From Stegostoma tigrinum (taxonomy: Eukaryota), in the NCBI RefSeq assembly GCF_030684315.1, contig NC_081383.1, positions 43,261,138 to 43,325,137 of the forward strand: a DNA stretch of 64,000 nt, given 5' to 3'. The notes under the pieces were generated by a model. The model saw only the letters and a list, made by a program, of their open reading frames with translations. It was not told where the DNA came from and did no database searches. Both the position numbers and the translations under genes were made by a program. This document shows, one piece after another, positions 5,005-52,070 of the stretch (its first letter is position 1; each line of letters opens with the position of its first letter).

Positions 5005-5038
5005 GATGTTTCGTTACCATATTGGGTAACATCCTCGG
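5005..5038 (-). ncRNA. Minimal hammerhead ribozyme motif, Penelope family A (U4C variant)
   Basis: tgca-CCGAGGA-T-GTTACC-caatat-GGTAAC-GAAAC-ATC-tgtg: a perfect 6-bp helix II and a short helix I (tgca/tgtg). Confidence 0.7.
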
Positions 5039-5483
5039 TGCAGCCTCCAATGAAGCGTTGGTGTGTTTTCCCACCTGGTTTTGAAATCCTGGAGTCTGTT
5101 GAGCTGGATTGCCCCATTTCTGGTTTTCCTTCATAGTGGAGTGTATATGGGAATGAATTCTATGGTTTATTAATGGCTTGCTTCATGGAGGGCCAGGCTT
5201 CTAGGAATACCTGTGCCTATCTCTGCTTAGCTTGCCCCAGGATTTTGGTGCTGTCCCATTCGAATTAGTGATTCTCTTTATCGCCATGGATTGAGATGAG
5301 TCAGTATTACTTGTGTCTTTTTGTAGCCAGTTGGTGTCCGTGGACCCTTGTTGCAAGTTTCCTTCCTGTTTGTCCGATGCAGTGTTTCTCACGGTCTCTG
5401 CAGGGGATCTTGGTCCTGTCAGATGACATTGGTCCCGTCCACGACAGGGAGGGGGTCTTTAGTTCGGGTGAGCAGTTGTCTTA

Positions 5484-5572
5484 GGGTTGATGGGCTTCAG
5501 ATTGGTATGACAGGTCGGCACAACATCGAGGGCCGAAGGGCCTGTACTATGCTGTAATGTTCTAAAAAAAAA
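5484..5572 (+). mobile_element. Short CR1 3'-end fragment nested in the Penelope element
   Basis: gatgggcttcag...acaggtcggcacaacatcgagggccgaagggcctgtact...gttcta plus an A run; near-identical to the 3' end at 54060-54136. Confidence 0.85.
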
Positions 5573-6747
5573 TGTGGGCTTGTGTGCCACTCTGATGCCC
5601 AGCAGTCATAGCAGTCATGCAGTTAGTTCTGATGTGTTCCTGATGTAGGGTAGTGAGATGGTAGTGTCAGGGCGTGTACTATGTTCCTGATGTTGTTTGT
5701 GTAGGCATCTTCTGACCCAGTTTTTCAGATATCCATTATCCTTGAAAACCTGGAAGAGGTATTCTCCTTCCACTTGGCGTAGTTGTGTGTTGTTGCCCAT
5801 TTAAACAGTGTTCGCACACAGTTTCGTTTGTGTGTGCTTGGATGGTTCCTTTTGAGGTTCAGTACCTGGTCTGTGTGCGCGGCTTTTCTGTGTACTTTCA
5901 TTTGGAGTTCCCCATTTGTCTTGCACTATACCATGACGTCCAGGAATGGGAGCTGTTTGTTCTTCTCCTCCTCTCTGGCGAATTTTATTCCAGTGAGGGT
6001 GTTTTTTTTAAGTTTGTGTGTCTCCTCTAGTTGGTCCGTTTAATGATGACAAAGGTGTCGTCCACATAGCGTATCCAGTTTTGGTGGATTTGCAGAAGGG
6101 CCATCCTTTCTGGTCTTTTGCATCACTGCCTCTGCTATGGATCTGGAGACAGGCAATCCCGTGGGTGTCCCGTTGATTTGTTTGTATGTTTGGCCGTTGA
6201 AAGTCAATTGGGTGGTGAGGCATAGGTCCAGTAATTTGAGCATGTTGAATGTGGAGATGGTTTCACTGGGGTCTTGTTCGTGATCCTGTCGTGTTGTCAT
6301 TGTTTCCCTTGCTAGTGGTATGTCTAGTGATGTAAATGGGGCAATGACATCAAACAATATCATGGTCTCCTCATTATCTATCCTTATGTTTTTGATGGAG
6401 TTGAGGAATTCTTGGGCTGAGGGGATTGAGTGGGGTGGCTTGTTGACTAGGTGCCTGAGTCTCCTTTGTAGTTCCTTGGCTAATCTGTGTGATGGAGTGC
6501 CTGGTAGGGAGACTATGGGTCTAAGGGGTACTTCTGGCTTGTGCACTTTCAGAAGGCTGTAGAATCGGGTTGTGTTGGTCCCCTCGGGGTTCATTCTTAA
6601 GAAGTCTGCTTTGTTGATCTGTCCTGTCTGTTTAAGTCTTTTTAGCGTGTGGAGAATTTTGTTGCCTAGTTGCGGTGTCAGGTCAGTTTGTACTCATTGC
6701 TATGTGTTTTCGTCGGCGAGCAGTGCAAAACACATTTAAACATTATC

Positions 6748-9123
6748 CAGTCCTTTCTGTTATTACGGATGTTTCATTAAGGCGAATTGGCTGTAATGTA
6801 ATTGATGAATGCTATTCGTAAAATGCAAATTTTCACATTAGTGTGTTGGCTATTATGCAATTCCACCACGAACACTTTAAGAGTTGTAGTGCATGCAGGA
6901 ATAAAATGTTTACGCCAACAAAGTCTGCACGTCGACATCACATGTTCAGTCCATTTACGTGCTTTGTTGTGAAGTGCTTTTCAAGAAGTATTCCATAATT
7001 TTTGGGTTTTTTTGCAAATTATGCTGTGTCATCCATTAGTATAGGAGCACAAAGTAACAAGAAAGTTTACAAAGAAGCGTTCTGGTGAAGATAAAGATAG
7101 GCTATAAACACTTGGAGAAGCTAGACGTTATAAAGCATTTGAATGTAATGAAAGAATGTGATGTTGTTTGTGCAACAGGAATAAAGGAGTTTATGTCACA
7201 CATCATTCGAGGCAGTGCAGAAAAAATTAAAGCAAGCTGTATAGCTGGAAGAAACCAGAGTAGTGAATCTGAGAGATCATGTCCAAAGAAAATTGAGAAG
7301 ATGGAGCAGCTTCTGGGTGCATGGATAGAAGATCAAACGAAAAAGCAATCTGTGATCAGCTTTTTGCACCAAAAAAGAGAAAACCTTATCAATTATGAAG
7401 ACCTAGAGGAAAAAAAGCTGAAAATCCTGCAGATATGCCTGCCTTTGGTGCTAATAGTAGTTGGTTTGCTGGTTATAAGGACCACGATGCTTTTCATAAC
7501 ATTAAGTTATATGGCAAAGCAGCCAGTGCAAACGAGGAATGTGCAATGACATTTCCTGCCATAGTGAAAAAATTGATTGAGGAAGAAGGATACAACTTAG
7601 GTCAAATTTTCAATTTGGATGAGACAGGTTTATACTGGAAGCGAATGCTATCAAGAACTTACATTTCTAAGAATGTAGCACACACTCTAGGCTTTAAGGT
7701 TGTAAAGGATCGTATGACAGTGCTGTTAAATGCCAAATGCTAGTGGAGACTTAAAGCTTAAGCATGTATTGGTGTACCACTCTGCCAACCCACAAGCCTT
7801 GAAAGGTTATCTTTGAAAGTCTATTTTAGGAGTCTACTTTAGGTCAAGCGAGAGAGGTTGGATGACAAGGCAAATATGTTTTTGAAAATGGTTTTAAAAA
7901 TTATTGCAAGGAAAAAAATTGATTTCAAAATTCTCCTCATTCTGGATAATGAGCCAAGCCATTCTCCCATTCTATTGCTGAGCTTTCTAGAAATAGCACT
8001 TTGATATGGTTACCTCCAAACACAATCTCTCTCCTTCAACCCATGGACTAGGGTGTAATAGCAAAAGCTTTTAAAGCTTATTATTTAAGGCATACATTTA
8101 AAATGCTGGCGGAACTACTGAGGGCGATTATAAAGGATGGGATTCTTCAATTTTGGAACAGCTTGAACATCAAGAATGCATTTGACTTTAATGTGGAGTC
8201 CTGAGGTAATGTCAGTAAGGACTGTTTGCATGAAGTTTGGCAAAAGCTTTTTCCATTTTTTATTCATGATTTTAAAGGATTTGAACTGTCAGAGGAGCTC
8301 CCAAGAATCAAAGAACATTGTGTTGATCTTGCAAAGCATGTTGGATGTTAAGAAGTGGCGAGCGAGGATGTTGAGACCCATTGGGAATACCTCTCCACAG
8401 CTGATCTACAACAACTTGTTGCTGAGGAGGAAATGGAATCTGGAGATGAAGAAGTAGTAGTCCAGGATGCAGCACTACGACAGCTTTCCACTTCCCTTCT
8501 GTCTTCTATCCGGAGGGAGGTTGAGAAACGGTTGCAGCTCTTGGAAGACAAAGATTACAATGCAGAAGGCAGCAGGATAGCAGTTTTTGGAATAAGGTCT
8601 TATCTGGCAACCTATAAACAGCTGCTTCATGAAAGAAAAATGGCAAAGCAGCAAAAACTAGATGCCTTTTTTTAAGCCAATCACCAAAAACACAATCAGA
8701 AGACTATGAACCACAGTCATCTCCTTCTGGATTAATTTTTTTTGACTTAACCCCACAACCACAACAGCACCTAAACGTGATGATGATGATAATGATAATG
8801 ACAGTGATGACCCGCAGCCCCCGTCTTAACAACTCAGCTACCTCAAAACCACCCTCCTCCCCCCATCAAACTATCTTCAAATATTTTCAAGGTAAAGTGT
8901 TAAACTTACTGTATTATTTTATTACTAGATATGAATTTAACATTTATTTAAACCGTGCTGGCCTATGTTAGGTACAAACTGCTACATTTATTTTGATTTT
9001 GAGTAATATTTTTGGTGGTCTGTCCCTATTTTTTTCCATATGCCCTGTTATTTTAATTGTGCAATTTTCTATTGCACAAACTCGCACAAGAGCGCAACTA
9101 CCTTGTTATAGCAGAAAGGACTG
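6748..9123 (+). mobile_element. Full-length decayed Tigger/pogo (Tc1/mariner superfamily) DNA transposon
   Basis: TIRs begin cagtcctttctg at both ends (6748 and the reverse complement at 9123). TA follows the right end; the left flank reads TC. Length is about 2.38 kb. Confidence 0.92.
7085..8675 (+). pseudogene. Frameshifted Tigger/TIGD1-like transposase
   Basis: HTH/CENP-B-like N-terminus (EKMEQLLGAWIEDQ), FNLDETGLYWKRM, LLILDNEPSH, LLQPMD*GVI, an acidic tail and C-terminal KQQKLDAFF; multiple stops and frameshifts. Confidence 0.9.
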
Positions 9124-11539
9124 TAGTTAAAAACAAATCAAAAGGAAAAAGAACTTAGAATAACTTAACTCTACTGGAAAGCCTCACAGAATAATAGATA
9201 CAATAACTATTACTAATTAACTGCTCCAATACAGTGACATCTCAAACACACCCCTTGCCAAAAAAGGCAAATGCAGAAAACAGATTTTGTCACATGTAAT
9301 CCAGCAGCCTAGGAAGAGAACCTCCAGCTTTTGCTGCAATTGAGAGGAGCAGAAACAGTTTCTACTTCATAAAAATACCAGCAACTTATACCAAATCTAA
9401 AATCTAAAAAAAAAACAAGAAATCCTGGACTGAGAGAGCTGACCACATTCATCCAGGCTGCTTCTATTGTTCCAACTTTTTTTAAAAAACTACAGAAAAG
9501 GTGGCAAGTCAGGTAGAATTTTTCCAGAAATGTAACAAGATTATGAAATTACAAGGGGAACTGCCGAATAAAGCAAGAAAGCCAGGATTTATTCATAGAG
9601 TAAATTTCTTAGAGTACAAGACTTTTTTAAATGACTGACAACCAAGTCTGAGTCAGCAATTACTAAAGAGACAAAAAAAAGGCTTAGGATTCTTTAGAAC
9701 AAAGTAAAAGCAATCTAGTTCCACCTGGTTTTCCAATACAGGAAAAGTTAACTTTATTAATTGTTATGTCAACAAGAAATTTAACAGATACTCTGCTTCC
9801 TTACAATAAAATGAAGTAAATCTGGGATTCTGGTGGTACAAAATGCAGTGATTCATATTGTAGTAATTTTGGTCCAACTCTCTGTAATTAGACAGATTTT
9901 AAGAGGAATAAGAAAATTCAGAAGAAGCTTTTTCACTCAAAGACCAATAAAAGTGGAGCCTGTTAGCATGGGGAGTAGTTAAAGCCACTAGGACTGAAGC
10001 ATTTAAAAGGAAATTAGTATGATACGAAGGAGGGAAGGAGTCGATTTAAATAAGAAAATTTGGAGGAATGGTGGAGTATTAACACAAGTATGGAGTGATT
10101 GAGCCAAATGGCAGTTCAGCACTATATATCTTACATATTACTATAATTACTCCAGATAAATGTCCTGTAGATCATTGTTATTTCATCTAATTTATTTGCC
10201 TCCACTTCTCAAGGTTCTAACCTTGTGCTTATTTCTACAAGTTGCTACTGTTCCACAAAATTGAACAACATCCAACTAGTTACTCTTTTTAACATTAGAC
10301 TAATCAACAATTTTTTCAATCACCCCAGATAACTTCACAATCAAGCCTTATCTTTTGACCAGTTGAATTCGATATTCTTGCATTTTCTAACAATAGTCAC
10401 GGGTTGATGACCTTCCTTCCAGCCAGGGATACAAATAGTAAACAACAAAACCCTGGCTTTTTGATTTCAAATTGGATCCAAAAATGAGGGCTTCCAGCTC
10501 TGTAATTTGGTGGAGGGTGGGCACTTGCCCAATGAGCTCAAGGAAGCTTTAATATTTTAAAGCCTGATTAGGGTTGATGGGCATTTTTAATTTAATAAAT
10601 AACTGAGGCCAATGATTCATCAACCTTCAGCCTTTTGGACTAACTCAAAGTCATTTCCCCATCGCATGGAGACTAACAGAAGGTCAATTCCAGAGTCACA
10701 CTGTACTTGTGTTCTGAAGCTGTAACATGTTGTATTTATGTATCATCCACATACAACGCCCCAAGACAACTCGAGCAGTGCAACTGGATTAAAAAATTAC
10801 ATGAAACCAAGGGAGACACTAAACAGGTGATGAGATCATTGAAGTGGGTTTTAAAATGCAACTTAAAAAGAATGAGGGATGGGGTTGCAGGGGGGGGAAT
10901 AGTTTTCCAGAGGGAATTTTGAAAATTACAGTTTAGATAGTGAAGGCAGTTACCTAGTGGTATGAAGTAAAAAGTCATGGACTCAAGAACTCAACAAGCA
11001 TAGAGATCTAAGGGTTATAACATTGTCAGAGGATAAACAGGTAGGGGGCAGCAAGGCCATGCAGAGATCTAAAAACGAGATGAGTTTTTTTTAAAAAGCA
11101 TAGGATTTCTAGACTAGGAACTAATGTATATAAGTGAGTGAATGGGACTTGCTAAGAGTTCAGAGACAACTCATGTGCTGGATTAGTTTAGAATGGTATC
11201 ATAGTGGGCCTGCTCTTATGCTGTACCTCAGCTGATGGAAATCTGAAATAAAACCCGTGTTGGAGGAAGTCTGACAGCATCCTTAAAGGGAGAAACAGAT
11301 TTCATACTTCTGAGTCCAACTCTTCTTGACTCTGAAGACAATGCTCACATGGTTTCTCTCTCCACAGATGCTGTCAGATTTACTGAGTTTTGTCAGCACT
11401 TCACTTTTATTTCATCACTGGAATAGTTCAATCAGTTTGTTCATGTTTGGAAAGAGATGAAAGCTTTACTTTCAATGGAGTTCGCTCAGAGTCGTGCCAG
11501 TATTCTCCATCTTTTCGCTATAAATTTTGTCTATTAATA

Positions 11540-13250: not shown

Positions 13251-13999
13251 CGTAGGTTTGACAGTATCACACTTTAATTTAACTTGCAAAGTTATTTTAT
13301 AGATAAATTTTGGAAGTATTTTACATCTGTACACCAAAAAGTAGATTTATGCCCCAGCCTTATGATTAAGTTGTTCTCTTCACAAAGAGACTAGAAGCTG
13401 CGGAAGTGTTATGGTTCTCATGGTATACTTCCTGCAATCTGTGTAAATATCCTATCTGTTCGCATTATTTTCTTTGTTTTTAAAAACTAAGAAACACAGC
13501 TTTATAGTAATCAAATTAGCCAAAAAATCCTTTAGTTCATTCCTAATTCTGTATTTTTTTTATAAAAAAATCAGGAAGTTAGGATAACATAGCAAGTCAG
13601 GTAGAGCATTTCCAACGATAAGTAATACAATTATAAAATGTTACCCGGACACCAATGAAACAGAGAGTCAACTGCGTTGTTGTCCAAGATGGGAATTTAT
13701 GCATTAAGTAAACTTTATGGGCCTCCTAAATCTTCCCTAGATCCCAAACTTCTTACAGCTCAGGTCTAAAGAAAAGATGTTCAGCTTGCAACAAATGCAA
13801 TTGACGAGACCCATGGACAAAAAAAAGACCTGTTGCTACAGACACATTGTGCAAAAATGACAGGGACAACAAATGTGAAGTGAAAAGCACAATGAACAGA
13901 GAGATAGTGAGTGACGCATACTCAATTTCAAAAAAGATCATAAAATGTGAGGCTGGATGAACACAGCAGGTCAAGCAGCATCTCAGGAGCACAAAAGCT

Positions 14000-14027
14000 G
14001 ACGTTTCGGGCCTGGACCCTTCATCAG
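14000..14027 (-). ncRNA. Minimal hammerhead ribozyme motif, family B, intact core
   Basis: ct-CTGATGA-A-GGGT-ccag-GCCC-GAAACGTC-ag: both conserved boxes, a GUC triplet and palindromic ACGU. Confidence 0.75.
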
Positions 14028-14280
14028 AGAGGGGGATGGGGAGAGGGAACTGGAATAAATAGGGAGAGAGGGGGAGGCGGACCGAAGATGGAGAGTAAAG
14101 AAGATAGGTGGAGAGAGTATAGGTGGGGATAGGTCAGTCCAGGGAAGACGGACAGGTCAAGGAGGTGGGATGAGGTTAGTAGGTAGATGGGGGTGCGGCT
14201 TGGGGTGGGAGGAAGGGATGGGTGAGAGGAAGAACCGGTTAGGGAGGCAGAGACAGGTTGGACTGGTATTGCGATGCAGT

Positions 14281-14311
14281 GGGTGGGTGGGTGGGTGGGT
14301 GGGTGGGGGGG
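14281..14311 (+). repeat. (GGGT)6 plus G-run microsatellite
   Basis: gggtgggtgggtgggtgggtgggtggggggg. Confidence 0.9.
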
Positions 14312-14809
14312 AAGAAGAGCTGGGCTGGTTGTGTGGTGCAGTGGGGGGAGGGGACGAACTGGGCTGGTTTAGGGATGCAGTAGGGGAAGGGGAGATTTTG
14401 AAACTGGTGAAGTCCACATTGATACCATTAGGCTGCAGGGTTCCCAGGCGGAATATGAGTTGCTGTTCCTGCAACCTTCGGGTGGCATCATTGTGGCAGT
14501 GCAGGAGGCCCATGATGGACAAGTCATCTAGAGAATGGGAGGGGGAGTGGAAATGGTTTGTAATCTCTTCAAAAAAGATCAATCAGTTTGAATAGAAATG
14601 ATGCTTGAAGGCTACTGTGGGATATAGAGTACTTCCTCACAATGAGGGAACTGTAGGATACAATCACCCTGACTACTTTTAAGCATATTCTACAAGTGGT
14701 GCCCAGAATGGAAGAGGAAAGGTATCTCTAATTAACTTCTTTGGCTAAAGAAGATTCACAATACAAGATGTGCCATGAACACGCACACACACACACAAAC
14801 ACGCAGACT

Positions 14810-14904
14810 AAGATAACAAAGTGTGGAGCTGGATGAACACAGCAGGCCAAGCAGCACAAAAGGAGCACAAAAGCTGACATTTCGGGCCTAGACCCTTCAT
14901 TAGA
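14810..14904 (-). mobile_element. Solo Penelope family B terminal repeat with mutated hammerhead (CTAATGA)
   Basis: ctaatgaagggtctaggcccgaaatgtcagcttttgtgctcc...; core at 14876-14903. Confidence 0.8.
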
Positions 14905-15734
14905 AAACGCTAAATTCACACACTAAATTGTATTGAGATTACTGACAGTCCAAGACTATTGTGCACTGCCACGGCACCATGACTTTAACATCAATAATGA
15001 AAGAAAAGTTGCCATAAATATTTTCAACTACAATATACTCAGTCAGCTTTTATGCCACTCAGTCATTACTTATTTACATCCTTATACATCATCACCAGTA
15101 AAAAGAGCAAGTCCAGTCTTAACGATTAGTTTTATTCCAGTACATTTGCGCTATAATTTGGGATGGTGCCACTGATTCTCATCGATTTTGAACTTCACAT
15201 ATACAAACGGATTGGGGCAAAATGCTTATGCACAAACGTTCACTAACAACAAAAAACTGGAAGAAATTGCTAAAACAGTAAATACAGATTCAACAGAAAC
15301 ACAGAACCAGACCATTAAGCCCAACAGCTCTATGTCAGCAATCATACTCCACACAAGCCTCCTCCTTATTTCATCCAACTCGGTGTGGATATCCTACTCT
15401 CTTCTCCTTCATGAACTTACCTAGTCTTCTCTTAAAACATATATGCTACATTAGAGTTGATCCACTGAAAGGGATAGGCAGTTCTTGATCCAACAAGACT
15501 TTGGAGTTTTATTGAACTGTGAAAGTCGACATCCCAGTCGAGAAACTGGATAAGAAATTAAGTTTACAAGGGAAAATTGTATCCTTATGAGTATGAATGT
15601 TAAATTCTCCAAAGACGGTGAAATACTGGTTAGGGAAACAGCTTCACACCAGGACTCAGTTAAGTCCTGTAAGAGTCTACAAAATAGGGTCTGAATAGCA
15701 ATACAGAACTTCAACAGATCCAGAGGATAGTGGT

Positions 15735-18190
15735 TAGTGTGGTGGCCATCACAGAGGTGGTGGTGCTGGGGAAGCTGCAAGGTCTGAAAGTGTGTAAATC
15801 ACCCAGATCAGATGGATTACACCCTAGAGTTCTGAAGGAGATAATTGAGGAGATTGTGGAGGCATTAGTCATGAACATTCAGAATCACAAAAGTCAGGGA
15901 GGATTGGAAAACGGCCAACGTAACACCCATTTTTATTTGGAGAGAGGGGCAGAAGACAGGAAACTACAGGCTGGTTAGCTGACTTTAGTTTGTTGATAAG
16001 ATTTTAAGTGTTTACTATTTAGGCTGCGATTGTGGAGGTACATGGTAAAATAGGGCCGAGTTAGTATAGCTTCATCAAGGGCGTCATTTTTGACAAATCT
16101 GCTAGAATTCTTGGAGAAGGTAACGAGCAAGTTAAATTAAGAAGAGCCAGCGGGCACAATCTATTTGAAATTCCAGAAGGCCTCTGCTGTGATGTGGAGG
16201 TGCCAGAGTTGGATTGAGGTGGATAAAGGTCAGAAGTCAATTGGCACCAGGTGTATCTGAAGTCACAAGCTTACAGAGAACTGTGCCTTCATCAGGTGAA
16301 ATGAAGAATAGCATCCAGGCACCAGAATTTATAGGCAGAGAGATCAACAGATTATACAAGTGCTGTGAGTGGAGTGTCGAATAATAAATCTCTGCAGGTG
16401 ATAAAAGTGTCAGACAGAGTGAGTAAAGTGTCAACAGCTGAATAGTAAGTGAAGGGTATGACCATAATCCAATTAATTGGGGAATAGAGATAATTACAAA
16501 ACATTAAAATAAAGTGGTGCAGGAGACAAACCAACTGGCTGGAATAATGTGATAGATATAAAAGAGTTGCATGCCAAGGGTCTAACCAAAGTAACAAATA
16601 ATCCAAAACTGTACAAACTAATTAAAGGTAGAGAGATCATAACAAGTTATCAAGGTGGCAGTGTTAAAACAGGACAGCAAGGAAGGTTCTGCCAAATAGA
16701 GAACAGCATGGTGGGGTTACTCGTTGCGCAACATGTACCCAGTTCACAGCTGACACCATCTTCATGGGTATGGAACTTGGCTGTCAGTTTCTGCTCGGTG
16801 ATTCTGCATTGTTGTGCATCTCAAAAGGACACTTATCCGAAGATTGGAGGTTGAATGCCCATGACTGCTAAAGTGCTCCCAATGGGGAGGGAATATTCCT
16901 GTCTGGCAATTTATCTGTTACCATAGCATCTGCACGGCCTCACCAATGTACCATGCCTCAGGGATCCTTGCCTGTAGCATACAAGATAAACAACATTGGT
17001 TGCCTCTGGCTGAGTCACAAGTGCCTGCGATGAACGTGGTTGGTGGTTTTCCCACATGATGCAAGTATCAATGTTGATGATCTAATTTGTCTTGCATATG
17101 TTGTCGTGGCAAGGTTGTGTCACACTGTGGTCGAAGTTGCCCTGAAATCTGGGTAATTTGCTGTGAATGAAGGTCTGTTTAAGGTTTGGCAGTTGTCTGA
17201 AGGTGAGAAGTGGGGGCAAAGGAATGATTTTAGCAAGATATTCAGAATCCATGGTGTTAGAGATCCACATACGAAGGCACAGAAGATTAGCCAACCGGCA
17301 GAATATAGAGAGTGGGGATAAAGGGTCTTTTTCAGAATGCCAGCCAGTGACTAGTAGAGCTCCACAGGGGTCCATGTTGAGACCACAACAATTCACATTA
17401 CATATTAACAATCCAGATGAAGGATCTTCGCAAAGGGGATGTGGCTGGTTGCAGAAGATGCAAAGGTAAACAGAGGGCCTGGTAGTGTTGCAGAAGTGGG
17501 GAGGCTGGAGAAGGACTTGGACAGGCTTGAAGAGTGGGCAAAAAAGTGGCAGGTGGAGTACAATGTTGTAACATTCAAGATTAGTCACTTTGGTAGGAAG
17601 AATAGAAGCATAGACTATTTTCTAAATGGGGGAAGGTTTTCAGAAATCTGAAGTACAAAGGGACTTAGGAGGCGTAGTTCAGGATTCTTTTCAGGTTAAC
17701 GTGCAGTTTCACTTGACAATTAGGAAGGCAAGTGTGATGGTAGCAAGGCAAGTGCAATCTTAGCATTTATTTCGACAGCACTAGAATACAAGAGCAGGCG
17801 TGTCCTACTCAGGATATAAAAGACTCTGGTCGGATTGCATTTGGGATATTTTGAGCAGTTTTGGGACCCTATCTAAGGAAGAATGTGCTGACCCTGGCAG
17901 GATTCCAGAGGAGGTTTACAAGAATGATTCCGGAGATGAAGGGCTGTCACATGAGGAGCGGTTGAGGGTCTGGGTCTGGGTCTGTAAGCCATAGAATTTA
18001 GAAGGAAGAGGGGGATCTCATTAAAACTTGCAGAATACCAGGAGGCGTGGGAAAGGGTAGACATGAAGACAATGTTTCCATGAGATCCAAGGACACAGCA
18101 TCAAGTGTGAACGAATGACCTTTTACAATTGAGATTAGGAAGAATTTCTTCAGCCGGAGGACAGTGAACCTGTGGAACTTATTGCTGCAC
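15735..18190 (+). mobile_element. Decayed CR1 LINE ORF2 split by the Penelope insertion
   Basis: KSPRSDGLHPRVLKE on the left; PQGSMLRPQQFTLHIN and DLDRLEEWAKKWQVEYNV on the right. Confidence 0.85.
16190..17235 (-). mobile_element. Penelope-like element 3' portion, family C, inserted into a CR1
   Basis: PLPPLLTFRQLPNLKQTFIHSKLP...QPCHDNICK linker/zinc-knuckle remnant. The terminal repeat carries a decayed CTGATGA-AGG...AAGCTT core at 16267-16295. Confidence 0.75.
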
Positions 18191-18894: not shown

Positions 18895-19040
18895 TCGGGT
18901 TGTGGATGAGGTTGTTGATTTGCTCGACGAGCTGGCTTATTTTTGTTCAGACGTTTTGCCATCATGCTAGGGGACATCACCAGTGGAGTTTCTGATGAAG
19001 CAATGTCTTGCTACTCGCTTGGAATTCATACTGTCCAGAC
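18895..19040 (-). mobile_element. Solo, decayed Penelope family A terminal repeat
   Basis: Aligns by eye to 4950-5100, with a degenerate core CTGGTGA-TGTC...GGC-AAAACGTC. Confidence 0.7.
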
Positions 19041-26534: not shown

Positions 26535-26615
26535 TCTAGGTCCGAAACGTCAGCTTTTGTGCTCCGAAGATACTGCTTGGCCTGGTGTGTTCATCCAGCT
26601 TTACACTTTGTTGCC
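26535..26615 (+). mobile_element. Penelope family B terminal-repeat fragment truncated inside hammerhead helix II
   Basis: tctaggtccgaaacgtcagcttttgtgctcc...ttcatccagct. Confidence 0.75.
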
Positions 26616-30895: not shown

Positions 30896-31274
30896 TCCTG
30901 GTAAATCTCCTCTGCTTTTTTTTTGCTCTTAAATGTACACAAGACAGCAACTATATTAAACTGCATTGTAATTAACATTTAACAGTGTCAGGAATAGAGA
31001 ACTGTACATGGAATAAATCAGATTTTGTTTTTAGAAAATGGGGAAGCAGTTCAAAACATTTACAAGTATCAGCCAAATTGACATTTAGATGGGCTTAGTC
31101 AAGAGGTGAGTGACAATTCCCAATTAACACAGACAATAAAACCTATATATTATCAATGGCAATACTCAAATGGTCAAGTTATGTGATTTTCCCATCTGTT
31201 AAAGTTTTGAGAACACTAACCTTCTCTGCCAATGAACGTAAACTGACTGAATCCATCTTGCCATCTTAAGTACT

Positions 31275-31750
31275 TCACCAGCTTCAAAATCTCCCCTTCC
31301 TCCACCGCATCCCAAAACCAGCCCAATTCGTCCCCTCCCCCCACTGCACCACACAACCAGCCCAGCTCTTCCCCTCCACCCACTGCATCCCAAAACCAGT
31401 CCAACCTGTCTCTGCCTCCCTAACCTGTTCTTCCTCTCACCCATCCCTTCCTCCCACCCCAAGCCGCACCTCCATCTCCTACCCACTAACCTCATCCCAC
31501 CTCCTTGACCTGTCCATCTTCCCTGGACTGACCTATCCCCTCCCTACCTCCCCACCTATACTCTCCTCTCCACCTATCTTCTTTTCTCTCCATCTTCGGT
31601 CCGCCTCCCCCTCTCTCCCTATTTATTCCAGAACGCTCACCCCATCCCCATCTCTGATGAAGGGTCTAGGGCCCGAAACGTCAGCTTTTGTGCTCCTGAT
31701 ATGCCTCTGGGCCTGCTGTGTTCATCCAGCCTCACATTTTATTGTCTTGG
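31275..31750 (+). mobile_element. Penelope-like family B 3' end
   Basis: Reverse-complement near-copy of 13945-14412. Confidence 0.88.
31654..31682 (+). ncRNA. Minimal hammerhead ribozyme motif, family B, intact core
   Basis: ct-CTGATGA-A-GGGTC-tag-GGCCC-GAAACGTC-ag. Confidence 0.72.
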
Positions 31751-33219
31751 AAGAGGGGAGATGTAGGTTTACAAAGTAAACAATATGGCTGCATTGCATT
31801 ATATCTACTTTGATAATGATAGCCAGAGTGGAATAGGAAGGAACAGTGCATAAACATGGAAAACAGCAGGTTATAGGGACAAAGAGGGAGAAGAGATTAA
31901 ACAGTCATTAATTGTGCCTTAATTTAATTTCACACAGAATTCTAAACAAAATCAATGAATAGAAGTTACTGGGAGTGATCTTACAGGCGTTGTGGAAGAA
32001 AGGTCATTAGGAGATCAAAGCTGAGAACTAGAGATTCAGAGGTCTATGACTTTTCTAAAGGGCAGGCAGGAAAAGGTAGTGGAGTGTCTTTATTTGAATG
32101 AAACAGAATAAGTACGAGAGCAAGAAATTATCTTGGATCAGGAGAATTAGAATCCATATTGGTGGAGGTAAGAAATAAAGATTAACACAAAACATAGATA
32201 TATCCCAAGGGCCTTAAACATTAGTTTAATGCAGGACAGAGAGTAAATCAGGAGATTACATGTGAATGTTTTTTAAAAAAAAAGCAAGACATTAATCGCG
32301 GGGGACTTAAATCTTCAGATTGGCAGAGGTAGCCATGAGGACGAGTTCACAGGGTGCATTTGGGATAGTTTCCTCAAACAGTACATTGTGGATCCAACCA
32401 GGGATCGGGCTATTTTAAATCTGATCCTGTGTAAAGAAGCAGGGTTAATGTGATTACCTTAATGTCAAGATTCCCTAAGAAACAGTAACTATAATATGGC
32501 AAATTTAATATTCAGTTTGAGAGGGAGAAACTGATGTCAGAAAGAAATGTGCTAAAGTTAATTGAGGGTATTTGCAAGGGAATGCAGGAGGAGTTGACCG
32601 AAGTTGATAGCTGCGAAACAATTACAGACTTAAGAAAATACTTCATGACTCACAAAATATATGCCAATGAGAAGTTTTTTTTTAAAAGAATGGGGATAAA
32701 CCAACAAGTTATACAAGCAAGTTAATGATAGCATCAATTCAAAAGACAAAACACTTCAAAGTAGCAAAACTTAATAGTAAGCCTTGCTGGGGCCTAAGCT
32801 GCTTGGCCTGCTGGGTTCATCCAGCTCAAACACCTTGTTATCCTAGTAAGCCAGAGGATTGGGAAAGATTTAATAATTTTTTTAAAAAGACCAAAAACAA
32901 GGAGAAAATAAACATTGTGGGAAAACATGCAAGTAATATCAAAGTGGACATCAAGAATTTTTAAAATTTATATTAAAGATAGGTAGAAGTCAAAATAACC
33001 ATTCGCCTTTTAGGGAATGAGGTTGGGAATATAATAGTGGGGCAACTGGGTTGAACACCTTCATTATTTCATTTTGCTCTGCTCACTTTTGGTCTGAAAA
33101 GGAGCTTGAATTGAATGTAACCATTAGAATGAGCATCAGCTTGTTTAAACAAAAGCTAACTTGTTCATGGGAACTAGCCTGGGAAGTTAATTGCAGATTG
33201 ATTATTGTTCAGAGGTGGT

Positions 33220-33406
33220 GGTGCGGAGGTGCCACTGTTGGACTGGGACGGACAAGGTCACAAGTCACATGACACCAGGTTATAGTTCAACAGGTTTATT
33301 TGAAATCACAAGCTTGCGTGGTGCTGCTCCTTTGTCAGCACTCCGAAAGCTTGTGATTTCAAATAAACCTATTGGCCTCTGATATGGTGTCATGAGACTT
33401 GACCTT
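33220..33406. mobile_element. Inverted pair of Penelope family C terminal repeats
   Basis: Perfect 24-bp arms at 33292-33315 and 33347-33370, extending imperfectly to about 33254 and 33406; ctccGAAAGCTT half-core. Confidence 0.8.
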
Positions 33407-35523
33407 CAAAAGAACAAAGCAGACATTTCGGCTCCAGTAATGCATTATGCTCAACAGCTAGCACCTTTAGATGTTGAAAAGAGCCATCACAGGGGAGGTC
33501 AGTGCAGACCAGTCTAACAAAGAGAATGTTGCAAAAGAGACTCCGAAGTTTGAACAGTTTTGAACTATATTCTTTAGACAGAAATGCCATGGCTGTGAAA
33601 ACTACTAGTTTTCTAGTTAAAGAATTACTGAACCTATAACTCCAGTATAAGAAATAGTGAATATTCCTCAGAGCTAACTGTCAGAATGATACATTGACCA
33701 GGAACTTAAGAAATAAAGCAAAATACAATGCAATATAAATCACGCGGAGTCAACAATGGCTTCCTGAAAGGGAAACCATATCTGACAAATCAGAATTCTT
33801 TGAAATTACAACAAAGTAGGAACAGATAAAGTAGAAGCAGCAGGTGTAATATATTTGGATTTTTAGAAGGCTTCTGACAAGGTACCATATGCTAGGCTGC
33901 CTTCTAAGATAACAATCCAAGGTGCTGGGGTAGTCTATCAGCATGGATAGAGGTTCTGCTAACTAATAGAAGACAAAGTTGGGAACCTGTTTTCAATGGA
34001 GTGCCTCTGTGCTGGGGCCACAAACATTTATACAGTGTAAAACAAAAGTTACCCTTCAGGTCTCTGCTAAATCTTTCCTCTCACTTTAACAATATGCCCC
34101 CCAGTTTTGAACTCCCTTACCCTGGGGAAAAGACTATGCTATTCATTTTATCTATACCTCATAGGTAATCTAAATCATGATTTTATAAACCTCGAAGGTT
34201 ACCCCTCAACCTCCGATACTCCAGTGAGAAAAGTCCCAGACCATCCAGCCTCTCCTTGTAATTCAAATTCTCCAGTCCCGGCAACATCTGGTGACTCTGA
34301 CGTTGGCAAGTCCTGCACGGGTATCGTTGGTCAGCCAGCTTAGGGCTCAGGAGTCATGGTGGAGGCTGCTGAGGGAAGGTGGACTTTCTTTCAGCTTTGT
34401 CTTTTTATTCTTGAAATATTCAAACAGCACCAGATTGTGGTAACAGTTGAAGTGTTTCACTGTATTTTACCATGTTGTTCATGGTAGAGTACAAGTGACA
34501 AAGTATAAATCATAAATCACATCCTGGGAAATCTTTTATGAATCCTCTCTAACTTAGTATCTTTCCAATAGAAGGAGGACCAGAACTGTACACAGTACTC
34601 CAAAAGTGGCCTCACCAACACCCTGTACAATCTTAACATGGCACTGCAATTCAATGGTTTGAGTAATGGAGGCAAGCTTACCAAACACCTTCTTAATCTG
34701 TGATGCAATTTTCAGAAGAATTATGTACTTGAACCCATACGTCTCCCAGTTTGACAACACTATCCATGACCCCAACATTCACTGTATAAGCCTTGTTTGT
34801 TTTACCTAAATGCACCAAATTAGACTCCACCTGCCACTCCTCAGCTCACTGACCCAACTGATCAAAATCCCTCTGTAGTCTTAGATGACCTTCACTGTCC
34901 AGAGACAGACAGATCAAATGCATGGGCAAAAGCTTGGCTGGTGGAATATAATGTAGGAAAATGTGAAATTACACACTTTGGCAGGAAGAATAAAGCTGAA
35001 CATTACTGAAATCGAGAAAGACTGCAGAAACCTGCAGCATGGAGGTATGTGGGGGGTCCTTGTGGATAAATCACAAAAAGCAAGCATACAAGTTCAGCAA
35101 GGAAAGGAAAGGCCTTTATTTCAAAGGGAATGGAGGAAACTAAAACTTTACAAGGCACTAGTTTAGCATACTGTGAACAGTTTTGGTGCCTTTATCTAAA
35201 GAAGGATATACTGGCATTAACTGCAGTCCAGAGACAATTAACCAGGTTGATCCTGGGTATAGTGGAATTTTCTTACAAGAGAAGTTAGATTGGACTGGTA
35301 TTCAATGCAGTTTAGAAGGAGAAATGACCTTGTTATAACACTGCTGATTCCTAGGAGGCTGGTCAATGTAAATGCAGAGTTTGTCCTGTTGGACAAGTGT
35401 AATTAATCTGTGGAATTCTTTACTGTAGTGGACTGTTACGGCTGATCATGAAGATATTCAAGGCCGTGATGGATTTTGAATCAATCAGTGGCAAAATCAA
35501 GAGTTATGGGAAAAGCCAGAAAA

Positions 35524-35845
35524 GTGGAGTTGAGGATCATCGGATCAGCCATGTTCTCACTGAATGGCAGTGGAGTTGAGGATCATCGGATCAGCCATGT
35601 TCTCACTGAATGGCAGTGGAGTTGAGGATCATCGGATCAGCCATGTTCTCACTGAATGGCAGTGGAGTTGAGGATCATCGGATCAGCCATGTTCTCACTG
35701 AATGGCAGTGGAGTTGAGGATCATCGGATCAGCCATGTTCTCACTGAATGGCAGTGGAGTTGAGGATCATCGGATCAGCCATGTTCTCACTGAATGGCAG
35801 TGGAGTTGAGGATCATCGGATCAGCCATGTTCTCACTGAATGGCA
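35524..35845 (+). repeat. Perfect tandem array, 7 x 46 bp, derived from a CR1 3' UTR
   Basis: Unit gtggagttgaggatcatcggatcagccatgttctcactgaatggca starts at 35524, 35570, 35616, 35662, 35708, 35754 and 35800. Confidence 0.97.
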
Positions 35846-35999
35846 GCTTAGACTCAATGGACCAAAATGTCCCACATTCACTCCTCGCAATCTTGGAATT
35901 CTAAACTGCTCCCAACTCTACTTGCTGGCTACTTTTGTCTTGCAACCTTGCATGACTCCTCTGAATCTAATATTAATAATTAATTTCTTTTTTCAGCCA

Positions 36000-37110: not shown

Positions 37111-37130
37111 ATTCCTGACTAGAAGTGATC

Positions 37131-37286
37131 AGCTGACATTTCGGGTCAAGACCCTTCTTCAGAAAGGGGTGTCGACCCGAAATGTCAGTTTTCCTGCTTC
37201 TCTGATGCTGCTTGGCCTGCTGTGTTCATCCAGCTTCACGCAGTGTTATCTCAGATTCTCCAGCATCAGCAGTTCCTACTATCTCC
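37131..37286. mobile_element. Inverted Penelope family B-related terminal repeat pair
   Basis: ctgacatttcgggtc...gacccgaaatgtcag arms. Minus-strand core CTGAAGA-A-GGGT-cttg-ACCC-GAAATGTC at 37135-37162. Confidence 0.82.
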
Positions 37287-37529
37287 ATACCTCAAATCAA
37301 TTTTCTTTCCCCAGAACTCATGTCAGTAGCATCTGCACTGAGGTGAATCAAACTCATTTCACGTAGGATCCTCAATGCCAGAAGATGCTTTGATTTAGCT
37401 TGGTCAGAAATTCATGTGCACAGATTTGCTACATTAATGACCAATTAGCTAAGTAATTTAACTTCAGTAGATTGTGTGAAACTCAAAATATATAGAAAAC
37501 ATACTGAATAGTGACTAAAAAAACAAAAC

Positions 37530-46395: not shown

Positions 46396-47199
46396 TTTGA
46401 TGTGACCAGAAGAGCACAATTAGATACAAATTAACACCTAGACACTGGCACACGTGATTAAGAAACTGGTAAAAGATGCCCCTTTTAAGAACTGTCATAT
46501 AGGGGAGGGGGGCAGATTTAGGGAGAAAATTCCAAAACTTAAGATCTAGACAGCTGAAAGAGCAGCTGTCAATGATTCAGAGGATAAAGTTGCACAGGAT
46601 GCTAGATTTGGAGGAAGGCAAAGTTCTCAAAATGATTCCAGGATTGCAGTGATGTATAATTATTGTCTTCACTATAATCATAACCAAAGTAACACCAAGT
46701 CCTCTTTCTGCACTCTCACAACTACCTCTGTATACCCTGGGGAGAAATTCTTAGTTCTTTCCTATTTCTCACTTATATACTCTCCCTTGACAACAACATT
46801 CCAAGCCTTCTGACGTCGTGTTTACACCATTTCTAGAAGTACCTATTTTCTCCTCCCATAACATCAAGAGACTATGCCCCATTTTTGAACATCTGCTGCT
46901 GAGCCTTTATTCATAACTTCAGTACCTCTGGACTCCAATGCATGCCTGGAGCAGCTCTGACATGCTATGTACCCTTTCCGACTGGAGAGCATCCAAAACT
47001 CTGCTGCCCATTTCTTATGATTAGAAAAGCTTGAGAATAATTATTCCTACGTTGGTGGCTGCATTTTCAACTGTTTAGAACCCACGCTTTGGAATTCATG
47101 CTGTATACCTCTGTTTCTACCTCACTTGCCCCTTTAAAACACTTTAAAGAAATCTCTTCAAGCAAGCTTTTGGTCATCTGACCAAGTGGCTTGATGTCA

Positions 47200-47326
47200 T
47201 AGAGATAGTAGGAACTGCCAATGCAGGAGAATCTGAGATAACACTGTGTGAAGCTGGATGAACGCAGCAGGCCAAGCAGCAGAGGAGCAGGAAAGTTGAT
47301 GTTTCGGGTCGAGACCCTTCTTCAGA
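47200..47326 (-). mobile_element. 127-bp solo Penelope terminal repeat with 13-bp target-site duplication
   Basis: TGGCTTGATGTCA at 47187-47199 and 47327-47339. Core CTGAAGA-A-GGGT-ctcg-ACCC-GAAACATC at 47298-47325. Confidence 0.88.
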
Positions 47327-50300
47327 TGGCTTGATGTCACCTTTGCTTTATAACACTTCCATGAAGCGCCCGTGAAAATGACACTACGTTAAAAGGTGCT
47401 AAATAAATATGCCGCCACTGTTTGAGGGGTTTAGGGAGGTTAAAAAGAGGGAGGAGTGAGATCATGGAACAATTAAAACAAGAGGGTGAGAATGAAATAC
47501 AAAGATGTTGTACTGGGAGTCAATGTAGGTTAGAGAACATAGGGGTGACAGGTGATCTGAATTTCTTGCCTGTCAAGATATAGGCAAAGTTTTGGATGAG
47601 ACCAAGTCTACAAAAGGGTAGACGATAGAGTCCAATGAGGAATATATTTAAATATTCAAGTTTAGGGATAACATAAACTGAAATGAGGAGGTTAACAGAA
47701 TATTGTTCAAGGCAGAAGTGAAGTTGGACAATGCTTGAGGTAAAGGTTGTCAGTTTAAGTGACTGAGAGACTGTGGTCAAAAGCTTCAGTCAGGGTCAAA
47801 CAAGAACAGGTGAAGTTGGATTAATTTCCACCATCCTCAATTGCTGCAGCCTTCCTTGCATCATTTATCAATTTGTTTTAGATTAACTGATGGAAATTGG
47901 TGGTAATGATTAGTCAGCACCATTCATTGCCACAATGGTAAGGCAAATTAGCATGGGCTGTCACCTTTATTAACAATAATTCCTAACAAAATACCACATT
48001 GATATGACCACCACAAAGTCCCACCTTCCCAGTGAAGATATCCTTTAGTATTTCTAAGCTGCATAGCTGTGTATCTGCTGCTCATTATTCCACGCATGAT
48101 CATCAACGTCAGTATGCCAACCATGACATTGACTTCCAGTTCCAGAAGGCACTCCAACGCACAGGATTTAGAGGCCCAAGCAGCTGGAATGAGAAATAGA
48201 AGGAATGCTATCTCCACTCAGCATTCTCTGATGAGCTGTGTGGAATTACCACAATGCTGAATGTAACCAGTTTCAAACAAATTGAGCAATTAAAGACTCA
48301 GCACTTTGGAGGTGTAGTAAGACAGCTGCAAATCTCATTTAACCACAGTCCATAACCTCATGGGCTGGCACACCATCCCACTCTACCACTGCAACCAAGC
48401 CAGGGATCAACCGTGGTTCAGAGAAGGGCATCTCAGGAGCAGAACCAGGCATACCTAAATATGAGGTGTCAACCTGATGAAGCTGCAACACAGGAATATA
48501 AAAATCAGTGTTAGCAGCAAGCAACAGCTAGTAAAATTATACTACCAATGGATCAACTCCAAGCTCTGCAGTCCTGCCACATCCAGTGTTGAATGGTGGT
48601 GGGCAATTATATAATTAAATTTTCCAACCCTCAACAGTGGAAAAGCCCAAAACATCAACGTAAAATACAAGACTGAGGCATTTGCATCAATTGTCAGCCA
48701 GAAGTATCAAACATATCAAGAACGATCATTCCTAACAAAAAGGGAAACAGAAGATGCTAGAAACAATTGCAATCTCCTCAGGGGTGGTAAGGGATCCAAA
48801 TATTTTTACAAGCACAAACATTAAGGACAGAAATACTTGGAAAAAAAATACAGCAGTTATAATGCCACGGCAATAGAAAAGTAAATGTTTACATTTTGTA
48901 TTAGTGACATTCAGGACACGAAGATGATTTTCAGATTTTAGACAACAGAAACCTTGCAAAACTGACCAATTCTTGACTCTACAGGATTTATTCCACACCT
49001 GAGTATGAAGAACCAACAGCTGCCGGCTACGCTTTCTCTGCAATTTGGCACCAAACTGAGTTACACTCTTTCATTAAAATCTATAACAGCATTGCGGTTT
49101 CTGAAATCAAGAATCATACTCGTCAGCAATTGCACTCCTCAAACTAAACCTATCATATTCCACTAAAAAAATGACACACAGATGCTAGTTCATCTCAATT
49201 CTAGAAAGTAGAAGGATAAGCAATACAGCTAAAATTTGTTCTTTACACACTTACTCAATGCCTTACATTTAGTAGCTTCTGTACTGCTCATCCTCCTCTT
49301 TAACCAAAATGAAAGCGATCTTAAGACAAAATGGAAATGAGGTCCCTATTCTTAACTGTCAGTAAGCATCACTTCAGTTTCCACACATCAGGTGGAAAAT
49401 ATCTTACTGATGATGTACACAACACAAATTAATCCTGATAGAGATAGATACAGACCTGGAGGAACTCTTTTGGGCTATCAAGCGACAACAGCCAAATATG
49501 CACTCTGGCAAGAGGACTTACTTCGCAGTGGTAATGTGTCTATTCTGAGTTAGAAGGCCTGGATTCAAGTTGCACCTGTTCCAGGATTGTGTAATAAACA
49601 GATCTGACAGGTTGATTAAAAATGTCTATACTCTAGTAAACCTAACTATTTGGAACTTCTGCACAACTTTCTAGGTAAAATAGGTTGGGAGAGGGTCTCA
49701 CATGAATGAATAACAATCGATTAAATTTCATCAAGAGACATGGAGGTCTTTCCTTAGCAATAGAAATTGTTGGGCTGCTCCAGTATTATTCCTGTATGCA
49801 CCCACAGCCTCTAGCTTTGGAATAAATCAAACAGCAAGTGTTGCTCCGGGGTTACAGGAATCAATTCACACAGATCTGGGTTTTGAAAACCCAGGGTTGC
49901 ACCACTGTCCTTACTTCATTTTTTGACACTGTCATACAAAAATGCATTAGATAGACAGTTTAACTCTCGGGAATAATAACATTTCTAAGGTTTAGAGAGT
50001 CTGATTTACTTAGATAGGTACAGATACAGAGACAAAGTATCCAGATAAGTTGTTCATCCCATTTTGCTTCAGTTTTGGCACATATTTTTACTTTAATAAT
50101 TATTTTCAATAACTATGTAACAAATTCTCATTTTAAGCTTTAGCCTTGTACACGTTGCCTAAAGTGTAGATCAAAGTTTGTCATCTATATTTTTAAGTGA
50201 TGAATTTTCTATTGCACACATTTATCTTTACTGCATTTTTGTTTCCAAACCTTTCAGAATCATCGGATCAGCTATACAAGTAGCTCTCCTATAATGCGAT

Positions 50301-50677: not shown

Positions 50678-51107
50678 CTGAAAAGCAATCAGAAACAATC
50701 AGTGCAATTTGCATACTGGGATACCATTCCAATCAACAAGTAACTCAACACAACATTAGAATAAAGTTTATTATTCCAAGAAAAATCACCATGTAGAATG
50801 TTTGTGTTTTTAAAAGCAATGGTGTGGTTATTTTGGAATGGATACTTCCTATTTCAAGCACTGAATGTCAACATTAAGCAGCATTAAGTCAGACACAGTT
50901 CCATCTGGAGGAAAAGTGATGCTCCTTTTACTTTACATCACAACATGCTTCATAATAGTAGTGACAGCACAACAGACAGCAATTTAGCCCATCAAATCCA
51001 TGCAGGCTGACTATAGCAAAATCCTACCAATTGCTTTCTTGCCCTTAGAATGGTTAACAAGATATGCTTTCCTCAAATGTTTCTACAGCTTCCTTAGTTT
51101 TAACAAC

Positions 51108-51400
51108 AGGGGAGGAGGTATCTTATTGTCAATGTCTCTGGACCAGTAATCCAGAACCCCAGAATAATATTCCAGGATATAGGTTCAAATCGCATCAGGA
51201 CAGCTCAAAAAATTTGAATTAAATAAAATTTGGAATTAAAAATTAGTCTAATGACAAACGTAATTTTTTTCTTTTACAAAAAGCCAATCCATCACTGATG
51301 ACTTTTACAGAAGGAGCACTGCTGTCCTTATCTGATCTGGCCTACACACAACTCCAGACCCACTCTTAAGTGCCCCCTGAAATGGCCTAGCAAGCCACTC
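51108..51400 (+). mobile_element. SacSINE1-like SINE or related LINE 5' head (decayed)
   Basis: Same head and core as 41842-42120, without the tail. Confidence 0.6.
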
Positions 51401-51860
51401 AGTGGTATCAAAACCACTACAAAATCTACCGAGCTACTGGAAACAACAACAGCAAACAGCAGCCACCTGGTAGCCATATGCATGGAAACATAGCTTTGCA
51501 GACAATATCCCAGTGACCATCACCACTATCCCTGTGTATACCTTGTCCCACTAGCAGCAGACCCACCATGAAGTTTTATGGCATCAGGTCAAATATGCGC
51601 AAACAAGTTTCTTGCTGATTAATACCTGCCACCAGACCTCAACTGACGAAAATCAGATGTCCTCCATGTTGAATTGCTACCCGATCAATATTGCCAAGGG
51701 CATAGATGTGGCCTGTGTGGGAACGTCAATATCCTTTAGCAAGGTGGCTCACTATTGCAATGGTGGACCGAGCTGTCAAGCCCTAAAAGGCAATTACTAG
51801 ACTAAGTCTGCAGTAGGTGGACAGGACTCCAAACAATTCAAACAGATCCAATAATTCAAA

Positions 51861-52070
51861 CACAGCAGGGTCAGCAGCATCAGCGGAGCAGGAAAGCTGA
51901 CATTTTGGTTTGGGACCCTTCTTCAGAAATGGGATTTCTGAAGCCACTTCTGAAGAAGGGTCCTGACCCAAAATGTCAGCTTTCCTGCTCCTCTGATGCT
52001 ACCTGGCCTGTGTTTCTCCAGCTCTACACTGTTGTCTCTGACTTCAGCATCGGCAGTTCTTACTATCTCC
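51861..52070. mobile_element. Inverted Penelope family B-related terminal repeat pair inside an L2-like LINE
   Basis: Arms at about 51862-51928 and 51948-52012; both hammerhead GAAA boxes are decayed to AAAA. Flanked by tccaa(a)caattcaaa-like repeats. Confidence 0.8.

Follow-up and report, generated by a model that had tools for sequence, protein, structure and literature searches.

Minimal hammerhead ribozymes occur in the pseudo-long terminal repeats (pseudo-LTRs) of metazoan Penelope-like elements (PLEs), mostly as single motifs left by truncated elements and sometimes as opposite-strand pairs (Cervera & De la Pena 2014, PMC4209133). Their monomers do not cut and their dimers cut weakly (PMC4209133); for Xenopus, one of nine dimers is published as cutting. 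In an anole PLE, the motif depends on protein, and the templates are mainly uncut RNA (PMC11167929). PLE promoters are known to lie in the pseudo-LTR (PMC2377424), and a putative PLE TATA has been described (PMC3846280). Here, we analyzed a stretch of 64,000 nucleotides from Stegostoma tigrinum (the window, G000:C38:43261138-43325137; genome size 3.2 Gb), in which hammerhead-like motifs belong to four PLE families, called A to D below. Quite probably, these motifs are minimal type-I hammerheads located at the 3' ends (pseudo-LTRs) of several PLE families, and the many short units are abortive insertions that the RT/endonuclease of the element copied from the tail to the start of an uncut, capped RNA.

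Positions are numbered below on the sense strand of the element, with signs, from hammerhead nucleotide C3 (C3 = 0). The intact core of family B, written as a 31-place pattern, has 106,753 exact matches in the genome with even strands (one core per 30 kb), and its reversed control has none. Exact patterns for family A, family C and the truncated class of family D match 8,251, 155 and 8,452 times, respectively. A sample of 99 stretches of 10 kb (990 kb), picked at round coordinates regardless of content and scanned with a descriptor stricter than the one used on the window, gave 84 matches (54 B, 13 D, 12 A and 5 other) against 0-1 in its five shuffles. This extrapolates to a genome total of ~270,000 cores (bootstrap over loci 207,000-336,000), and both this figure and the exact family-B count bear out the very high copy number that the initial annotation had proposed from the window alone. 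An assembly artefact was also considered and is ruled out by the equal strand counts, the zero controls and the target duplications around units.

A clue to the origin of the short units is their 5' edge. For family B, the sample and the window together (1.054 Mb) contain 236 anchor matches, nine of which were excluded for a low score, a short 3' end or a stretch edge. Among the 227 copies used, 58 reach at least 60 nt upstream, 11 start in -40..-11, 10 in -10..-5, 61 in -4..+1 and 49 in +2..+27, so that starts pile up within a few nucleotides of C3 (edge p 1e-36 and 1e-17). Genome-wide, 27,724 exact family-B cores have a non-template base at -12, and loose ends pile up at -1 in two of four sequencing runs of one sample (runs of unspecified kind, contigs of that one sample and possibly the assembly's own). 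The other families have edges of their own: all 30 family-D loci selected because -12 holds a non-template base start at -5..-2, all 20 non-long family-A loci start at -18..-16 (the pattern fixing -16 as the latest start), and, in 20 loci read by eye, most family-C copies begin around -6 to -8. At the other side, family-B copies end at +92 (114 copies) or +128 (113 copies).

The base that precedes this edge is frequently a G. In the first 100 of 6,167 matches with a -4 start, a hand count of the base at -5 gave 71 G, 21 T and 8 A. In 30 such loci, nine G are explained by an adjacent copy and 15 of the 21 others are G against 26% expected (p 2e-5). Solo copies provide a control, with G in 6 of 9 starting at -6..-4 versus 2 of 33 starting at +2..+61 (p 4e-4). 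The extra G is also present in 15 of 22 family-D copies at -4/-3 and, by eye, in all five host-flanked family-A copies at -17, while partner-flanked family-A copies mostly have A at the junction. At L1 and SVA junctions, such an extra 5' G has been attributed to copying of the m7G cap (PMC3287187). Upstream of the edge, a TATA-like box lies at -34/-35 in family B, -33 in family D (by eye), -46 in family A and -38 to -41 in family C, and its columns in family B are 94-98% constant among variable neighbours. The spacing from box to edge is 28-33 nt in all four families, and the usual distance from a TATA box to a transcription start is about 30 nt. On these sequence grounds, the edge likely marks a capped transcription start.

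Inverted units tell a second part of the story. The 227 family-B copies include 45 short head-to-head pairs (90 copies), in line with the earlier claim that the repeat has spread as solo and inverted units. In 44 of the 45, one arm ends near +92 and the other near +128 (p 3e-12); arms of a pair are 89% alike versus 81% for random pairs, and flanking duplications of at least 7 nt surround 33 of 45 pairs versus 1 of 45 controls. Since the arm asymmetry, the arm likeness and the duplications all point to one insertion per pair, the pairs are, judged from their sequence, single double-primed insertions, expected to fold as hairpins (-65 to -122 kcal/mol for predicted head-to-head transcripts). We also considered that inverted units act as ribozyme dimers. 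This is excluded by orientation and predicted folding: head-to-head arms yield one sense and one antisense copy per transcript, and thus no two-ribozyme dimer. An antisense self-priming model has been proposed for PLE palindromes (PMC3846280), and self-priming alone does not predict a cap-like G. Elsewhere in the genome, a family-A head-to-head pair (L141:+6425 / L141:-6314) is joined via (TA)n directly above the TATA-like box.

Short family-B copies share their subfamily letters and both 3' ends (+92 and +128) with long coding copies, and they are without the upstream box; for these reasons they look like dead PLE products. The separate short retroelement or SINE (short interspersed nuclear element) family suggested in the initial annotation is not supported; judged from sequence, the short units were likely made as run-off cDNAs on RNA that had stayed uncut. 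In the mechanism that we propose, the TATA-like box would drive RNA polymerase II from the edge directly before the ribozyme, and the extra G would be the copied cap. Starting from the first repeat's tail, reverse transcription would reach the cap after about 100-130 nt. The PLE protein would prime one or both target strands, using two tail sites in the way established in vitro for the anole PLE; where both are primed, the two cDNAs would join at their 3' ends, giving a palindrome. The product would insert as a promoter-less solo or as a palindrome, and these short copies are likely dead ends. Any copy that keeps the box (about a quarter of family B) could be a source of such RNA, and this would account for the high numbers. 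To cut, the ribozyme itself would need to be a dimer or to be helped by the protein; the cut would remove a 32-nt capped leader, and most templates that left insertions would have stayed uncut.

Several observations weigh against this scheme. Start site, cap and expression are all deduced from DNA. The edge coincides with the foot of a hairpin, both in family B (-11.4 kcal/mol) and in family A (by eye, a hairpin of 5 bp that begins at -17), and the reverse transcriptase (RT) could therefore stop there for structural reasons. Among 274 loci, none of the nine copies that run from the ribozyme region into the open reading frame (ORF) starts at -4..+1, and seven extend farther upstream, a pattern that the scheme in its simple form would not predict. 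In family A, a script found A at 9 of 15 non-template bases at -18, most of them from inverted partners, and the B set took in some D-family copies. Finally, cutting is predicted between +27 and +28 in family B and, among genome-wide starts at +22..+36, 28 of 91 usable rows begin at +28 against a mean of about 5 elsewhere (hand count, 9 of 100 rows being set aside as point or indel mutants), so that some templates may have been cut.

A more ambitious version can be offered, though only tentatively. The insertions could be fossil strong-stop cDNAs, with R-like repeats, an RT jump, a ribozyme switch at the 5' end and possibly competition with an intron. The transcript, beginning 4 nt before the hammerhead, would have -4..+128 repeated at its two ends in the manner of a retroviral R region. 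From a start in the 5' tail, RT would run to the cap. It would then either insert there, which would yield ribozyme-only units in their hundreds of thousands, with twin-primed palindromes common among them, or jump to the 3' copy and rebuild the pseudo-LTRs without ribozyme cutting or an RNA circle. Such a jump from the 5' to the 3' repeat would, speculatively, fit the ORF-reaching copies, none of which sits at the edge. In this version, the ribozyme would act as a switch at the extreme 5' end of the mRNA, where a cut takes off the cap, and would possibly compete for the GU of its GUC cleavage triplet with an intron. An intron of 139 nt is predicted at +25..+163 (L107:4753-4891(-), also in L106 and L118), with this GU as donor. 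Its branch point is good, its acceptor lies 2 nt before the methionine of the ORF and its donor is weak; its removal would bring an AUG at +3, part of the CUGAUGA box, into the frame of the 1,089-amino-acid ORF. The predicted joint is absent among the rows listed from the four runs of the one sample, and the intron-less genomic junction has no match genome-wide; as PLEs keep introns, this lack of spliced genomic copies neither supports nor refutes the predicted intron. A 27-codon upstream frame from +46 carries a single TGA, at the tail end, and is in frame with the main ORF.

The coincidence of edge and hairpin foot raises a different, rather unlikely explanation, in which the edge is a structural stop: RT or cDNA would leave at the ribozyme hairpin, the RNA would begin upstream and the extra G would come from terminal transferase activity. 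The minimum-energy fold of family B is in fact a hairpin with its foot at C3, in which CUGAUG pairs with CGUCAG (-11.4 kcal/mol versus -3.6 for the active fold); the family-A edge sits at the foot of the small hairpin mentioned above, and most of the ORF-reaching copies pass the edge. However, an RT travelling 3' to 5' would run into the hairpin at +29, and -4 is not where it would exit. A structural stop also leaves aside the box-to-edge spacing kept in four families, with the box shifting together with the edge in family A, and the enrichment of G at the edge and not at internal truncations.

Could the short unit instead be a self-propagating non-autonomous element, such as a SINE or a retrozyme monomer, with its own masters and mobilised by the PLE? 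Its fixed size (about 97 or 133 nt), its target duplications and the predominance of copies extending under 60 nt upstream of the core (169 of 227) are what such an element would show, and a three-copy array at L136:5076-5746(-), in which family-B units, each containing a core, stand in direct tandem at a period of 301 nt (about -69..+242), resembles retrozymes (bioRxiv 10.64898/2026.07.22.740005). We nevertheless consider this improbable: besides the letters and 3' ends shared with long coding copies and the missing box, 5' ends spread over -4..+1 and trail off downstream with no single master end, and direct tandems are rare, no short copy among the 227 family-B copies being classed as direct and one of 30 in another set. 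Two further direct tandems were noticed, at G000:C1:4383887-4384021 with a period of 100 nt (roughly from the cut site to the end of the tail) and at C1:2722781-2722882 with a period of 59 nt, and no head-to-tail tandem of hammerhead units was found in the window.

Least of all do the units seem to derive from RNA that was cut by the ribozyme or circularised, an origin put forward for PLEs and retrozymes: the excess of starts at +28 (28 rows), with 18 rows of AGCT-centred palindromes against one ACGT-centred row, speaks for it, but only 2 of 227 sampled family-B copies start there, the 18 palindromes are explained by 4-nt microhomology and four more by 3-nt microhomology, the main class retains the whole uncut ribozyme, and in family B helix I has 2 bp and the active fold lies about 8 kcal/mol above the hairpin. 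The excess hints at a minor cut class in these sequences, and no more. Families D and A are predicted to have better helices I for cleavage than family B, with 4 bp in D and 3 bp in A, compared with 3-4 bp in C (by eye) and 2 bp in B (the third pair in 2 of 109); the 2-bp helix of family B is like that of a D. virilis variant (PMC4209133).

The architecture of the core is real, and its description from the window is partly confirmed. An extra nucleotide follows CUGANGA in 83 of the 84 matches of the 990-kb sample, and helix III is palindromic as proposed, with CG or its CpG-decay forms at 15.2/16.2 in 81 of 84 (CG 46, decay forms 35); it reads ACGU in families A, B and D and AGCU in family C, where the search pattern fixed it. 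The claim that helix II pairing is kept with a different stem in each family also holds, each pair being paired in 85-100% of cells in A, B and D; helix II has at least 4 bp and opens with G-C, and most changes within a family are one-sided. Across families, the boxes are the only shared sequence. Outside CpG sites, the core varies less than the 3' flank does in family B (0.96 versus 0.89, p 0.03), family D (0.95 versus 0.87) and family A (0.98 versus 0.83), the D and A sets being partly selected by core-like sequence; in family B the difference arises mainly because subfamily differences avoid the core, and the +45..+75 block of this family is as constant as its core. All 11 core positions are intact in 71 of the 133 family-B copies that span the core, with decay hot spots at the CpG of G12 and of helix III, and core decay looks neutral.

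Families A, B and C all link to RT and GIY-YIG coding sequence, and the view that these are minimal hammerheads of PLE pseudo-LTRs is thus upheld. Full-length family-B copies measure 3.66 kb and are organised as hammerhead, 1,089-amino-acid ORF and hammerhead. Among 20 family-B loci chosen for long open frames, three contain the series hammerhead, ORF region and hammerhead with a period of 3.5-3.7 kb, and these three have a partial copy of 613-2,039 nt upstream, the pseudo-LTR being a partial tandem. The ORF in L107 matches RVT_1 at 571-715 (E 1.9e-5) and GIY-YIG at 949-988 (E 0.004), both below Pfam cut-offs, with a CX4CxxC linker ahead of the endonuclease (EN). A CX2-5CxxC linker between RT and EN is the mark of Neptune (PMC8557442), and family B, a young family, is by this linker assigned, from sequence, as a Neptune-type PLE. 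Its RT has 115,753 candidates in the genome, many with long open frames, and its end at 13934-14413 of the window (480 nt) has 2,651 candidates, the best 40 of which scored mostly 90-100% identity. Like PLEs with an endonuclease (EN+), family B displays inverted partners and two 3' ends. In family A, RT is joined to GIY-YIG remnants; as it does so without the CX4CxxC linker, this family is presumably Poseidon-like. For family C, one locus (L196) holds RT (E 4e-9) and GIY-YIG (E 0.005) remnants and aligns to the upstream region of the window copy. Family D, with a tail related to that of family B, is common, with 82 anchor matches, a few of which are B, and its coding link consists of a by-eye GIY-YIG remnant and DNA likeness.

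In the window, a descriptor composed of CUGANGA, 0-1 nt, a helix II of at least 4 bp, GAAA and UH, with no demand on helix I, matched four times against 0-1 per shuffle in 20 dinucleotide shuffles; the sites cited in the initial annotation do contain hammerhead-like sequence above chance. All four matches belong to family B, with C3 at 14027(-), 31654(+), 37162(-) and 47325(-), and the palindromic CG of helix III is kept at the first two only, being TG at 37162 and CA at 47325. The figure of about ten cores was too high, as four pass the descriptor and two are fully canonical. Similarly, the recurrence of CUGANGA in three families stands for B and fails in the window for A, which reads CCGAGGA, and for C, which has no intact core there; elsewhere in the genome, both of these families have intact cores, as their exact pattern matches show. 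An Rfam scan of the window returned no hammerhead family even at E<=1 and three weak unrelated matches; minimal PLE hammerhead variants evidently escape Rfam models.

Family B is represented as follows. A 5'-truncated Neptune-type end on the minus strand (13934..14564) comprises the GIY-YIG C-terminus (95% amino acid identity to the family ORF over 78 amino acids), the 3' untranslated region, a TATTTAT box at 14061-14055 (-34), the canonical hammerhead 14027-14000 and a 3' end at +93. A second 5'-truncated end, on the plus strand (31272..31748), has TATTTAT at 31620, a canonical core at 31654-31682 with an extra G in loop II and a 3' end near +92. The short solos are 14811..14907(-), which spans -4..+92, is preceded by an untemplated G and has a broken core at 14903(-) (CTAATGA, G5A), and 47187..47339(-), which spans -1..+128 (47326-47200), has a core that passes the descriptor with CA in helix III and is flanked by a 13-nt target-site duplication (47187-47199 / 47327-47339). 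A half copy, +11..+88, begins within helix II (26535..26612(+)), and a tail-side fragment, +48..+91, is without ribozyme (32798..32847(+)). Two units are head-to-head. In 37131..37287, the descriptor accepts the core at 37162 in the minus arm (-7..+31), and the plus arm (+8..+127) is a half copy from 37167. In 51832..52081, with C3 at 51926(-) and 51950(+), CAAAA replaces the GAAA box in both arms (G12A); this unit has a candidate 11-nt flanking duplication and a predicted hairpin of -122 kcal/mol.

Family A is present as a decayed PLE on the minus strand (4973..6720; Poseidon-like, the clade being inferred) with an RT remnant (tblastn 6720-5803, E 7e-10; Pfam RVT_1 E 0.002, below cut-off), a GIY-YIG remnant and a hammerhead at 5038-5005 bearing U4C and a CA in helix III (CATC); its DNA is 67-68% identical to other family-A loci. 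A second copy (18919..19001(-), match -17..+64, C3 at 18983) is decayed, as was claimed, with A6G and G12A in its core. Family C has a PLE end with approximate limits (16190..17211(-)), with TATAAAT at -38, a hammerhead at 16295-16267 with GTAA in place of GAAA, and an upstream remnant 74% identical to L196 over 309 nt, and a head-to-head inverted unit (33254..33406) predicted to form a single hairpin of -87 kcal/mol, in which the minus-arm core at 33338 is broken (CTGACAA and GCAA) and the plus arm is a half copy that begins in helix II near 33330. Family D, absent from the first list of families, is found as decayed copies with a 4-bp helix I at about 11200-11400, 30770-30860(+) and 58060-58120(+). 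Nearby, a GIY-YIG remnant at 57594-57803(+), 36% identical to family B over 70 amino acids, is flanked by outward-facing decayed D-like ends (57288-57447 and 58450-58614).

Outside these elements, seven perfect copies of a 46-nt unit lie within an older repeat at 35523-35846, representing either a very recent expansion or an assembly artefact. Broken frames at 7058-7743(+) look by eye like a pogo/Tigger transposase, with no match in Pfam. An exon-like frame rich in Pro, Thr and Ser at 61652-62014(-), which we take to resemble the RAD23 linker, has no match in a Pfam or PDB search. Finally, the GC-rich segment 25283-26041, with overlapping open frames, is likely a CpG-island promoter or first exon.

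With such counts, this genome would far exceed the vertebrate hammerhead numbers found in print, most copies being likely silent. The insertions may serve as a natural read-out of how PLEs transpose and of what the hammerhead does, since they suggest where the RNA begins, a template that is mainly uncut capped RNA and priming in pairs at two tail sites; in a young family with many long open frames, each of these steps is testable. About 40% of family-B copies lie in short perfect-arm palindromes, which could supply much double-stranded RNA within introns. The link between ribozyme and PLE, the solos and the opposite-strand pairs are already published (PMC4209133, PMC8557442). New here are the core numbers, the 5' edge with its untemplated G and the pair asymmetry. 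In a literature search that was sparse in subscription papers, we found shark PLE hammerheads reported only for one chondrichthyan in the retrozyme preprint, and no cap-marked 5' edge, no counts this high and no description of families A-D; the families or higher counts may be recorded in supplements or in Repbase/Dfam.

Compared with the minimal hammerheads of PMC4209133, those described here share the type I core, the extra nucleotide between 9 and 10.1, the G10.1-C11.1 pair, the palindromic 15.2-16.2 and the short helix I. Counts in that study, obtained with another descriptor, were about 4,000 in coelacanth and 9,000 in Xenopus, against at least 106,753 exact family-B cores here; cartilaginous fish and a fixed 5' edge, both seen here, do not appear in the part of it that is at hand. 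With the EN+ PLEs Neptune and Penelope/Poseidon (Craig et al. 2021, PMC8557442), our families have in common RT together with GIY-YIG at the C-terminus, 5' truncation, partial tandems, an inverted 5'-truncated copy and a 30-40 nt tail at one end. The pair asymmetry fits this rule of a tail at one end; unlike in those elements, the rule is near-absolute in our short pairs (44 of 45), and most copies are little beyond ribozyme and tail. PAc, a Poseidon element of Anolis (Frangieh et al. 2024, PMC11167929), similarly has two RT starts that bound the tail downstream of the ribozyme, an uncut RNA template and both strands nicked and extended, established in vitro there and deduced from insertions here; the accessible text of that report maps no transcription start. 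Animal non-LTR retrozymes (bioRxiv 10.64898/2026.07.22.740005) are likewise derived from PLE pseudo-LTRs and carry type I hammerheads. They are defined as tandem arrays, occur in one chondrichthyan with a mean unit of 363 bp and reach at most 14,255 tandem elements (axolotl), whereas the units described here are solo or head-to-head and measure 97-133 nt. Finally, the extra 5' G marks full-length inserts in L1 and SVA (PMC3287187) and very short inserts in this shark, probably because the PLE RT begins within the RNA at a point close to the 5' end.

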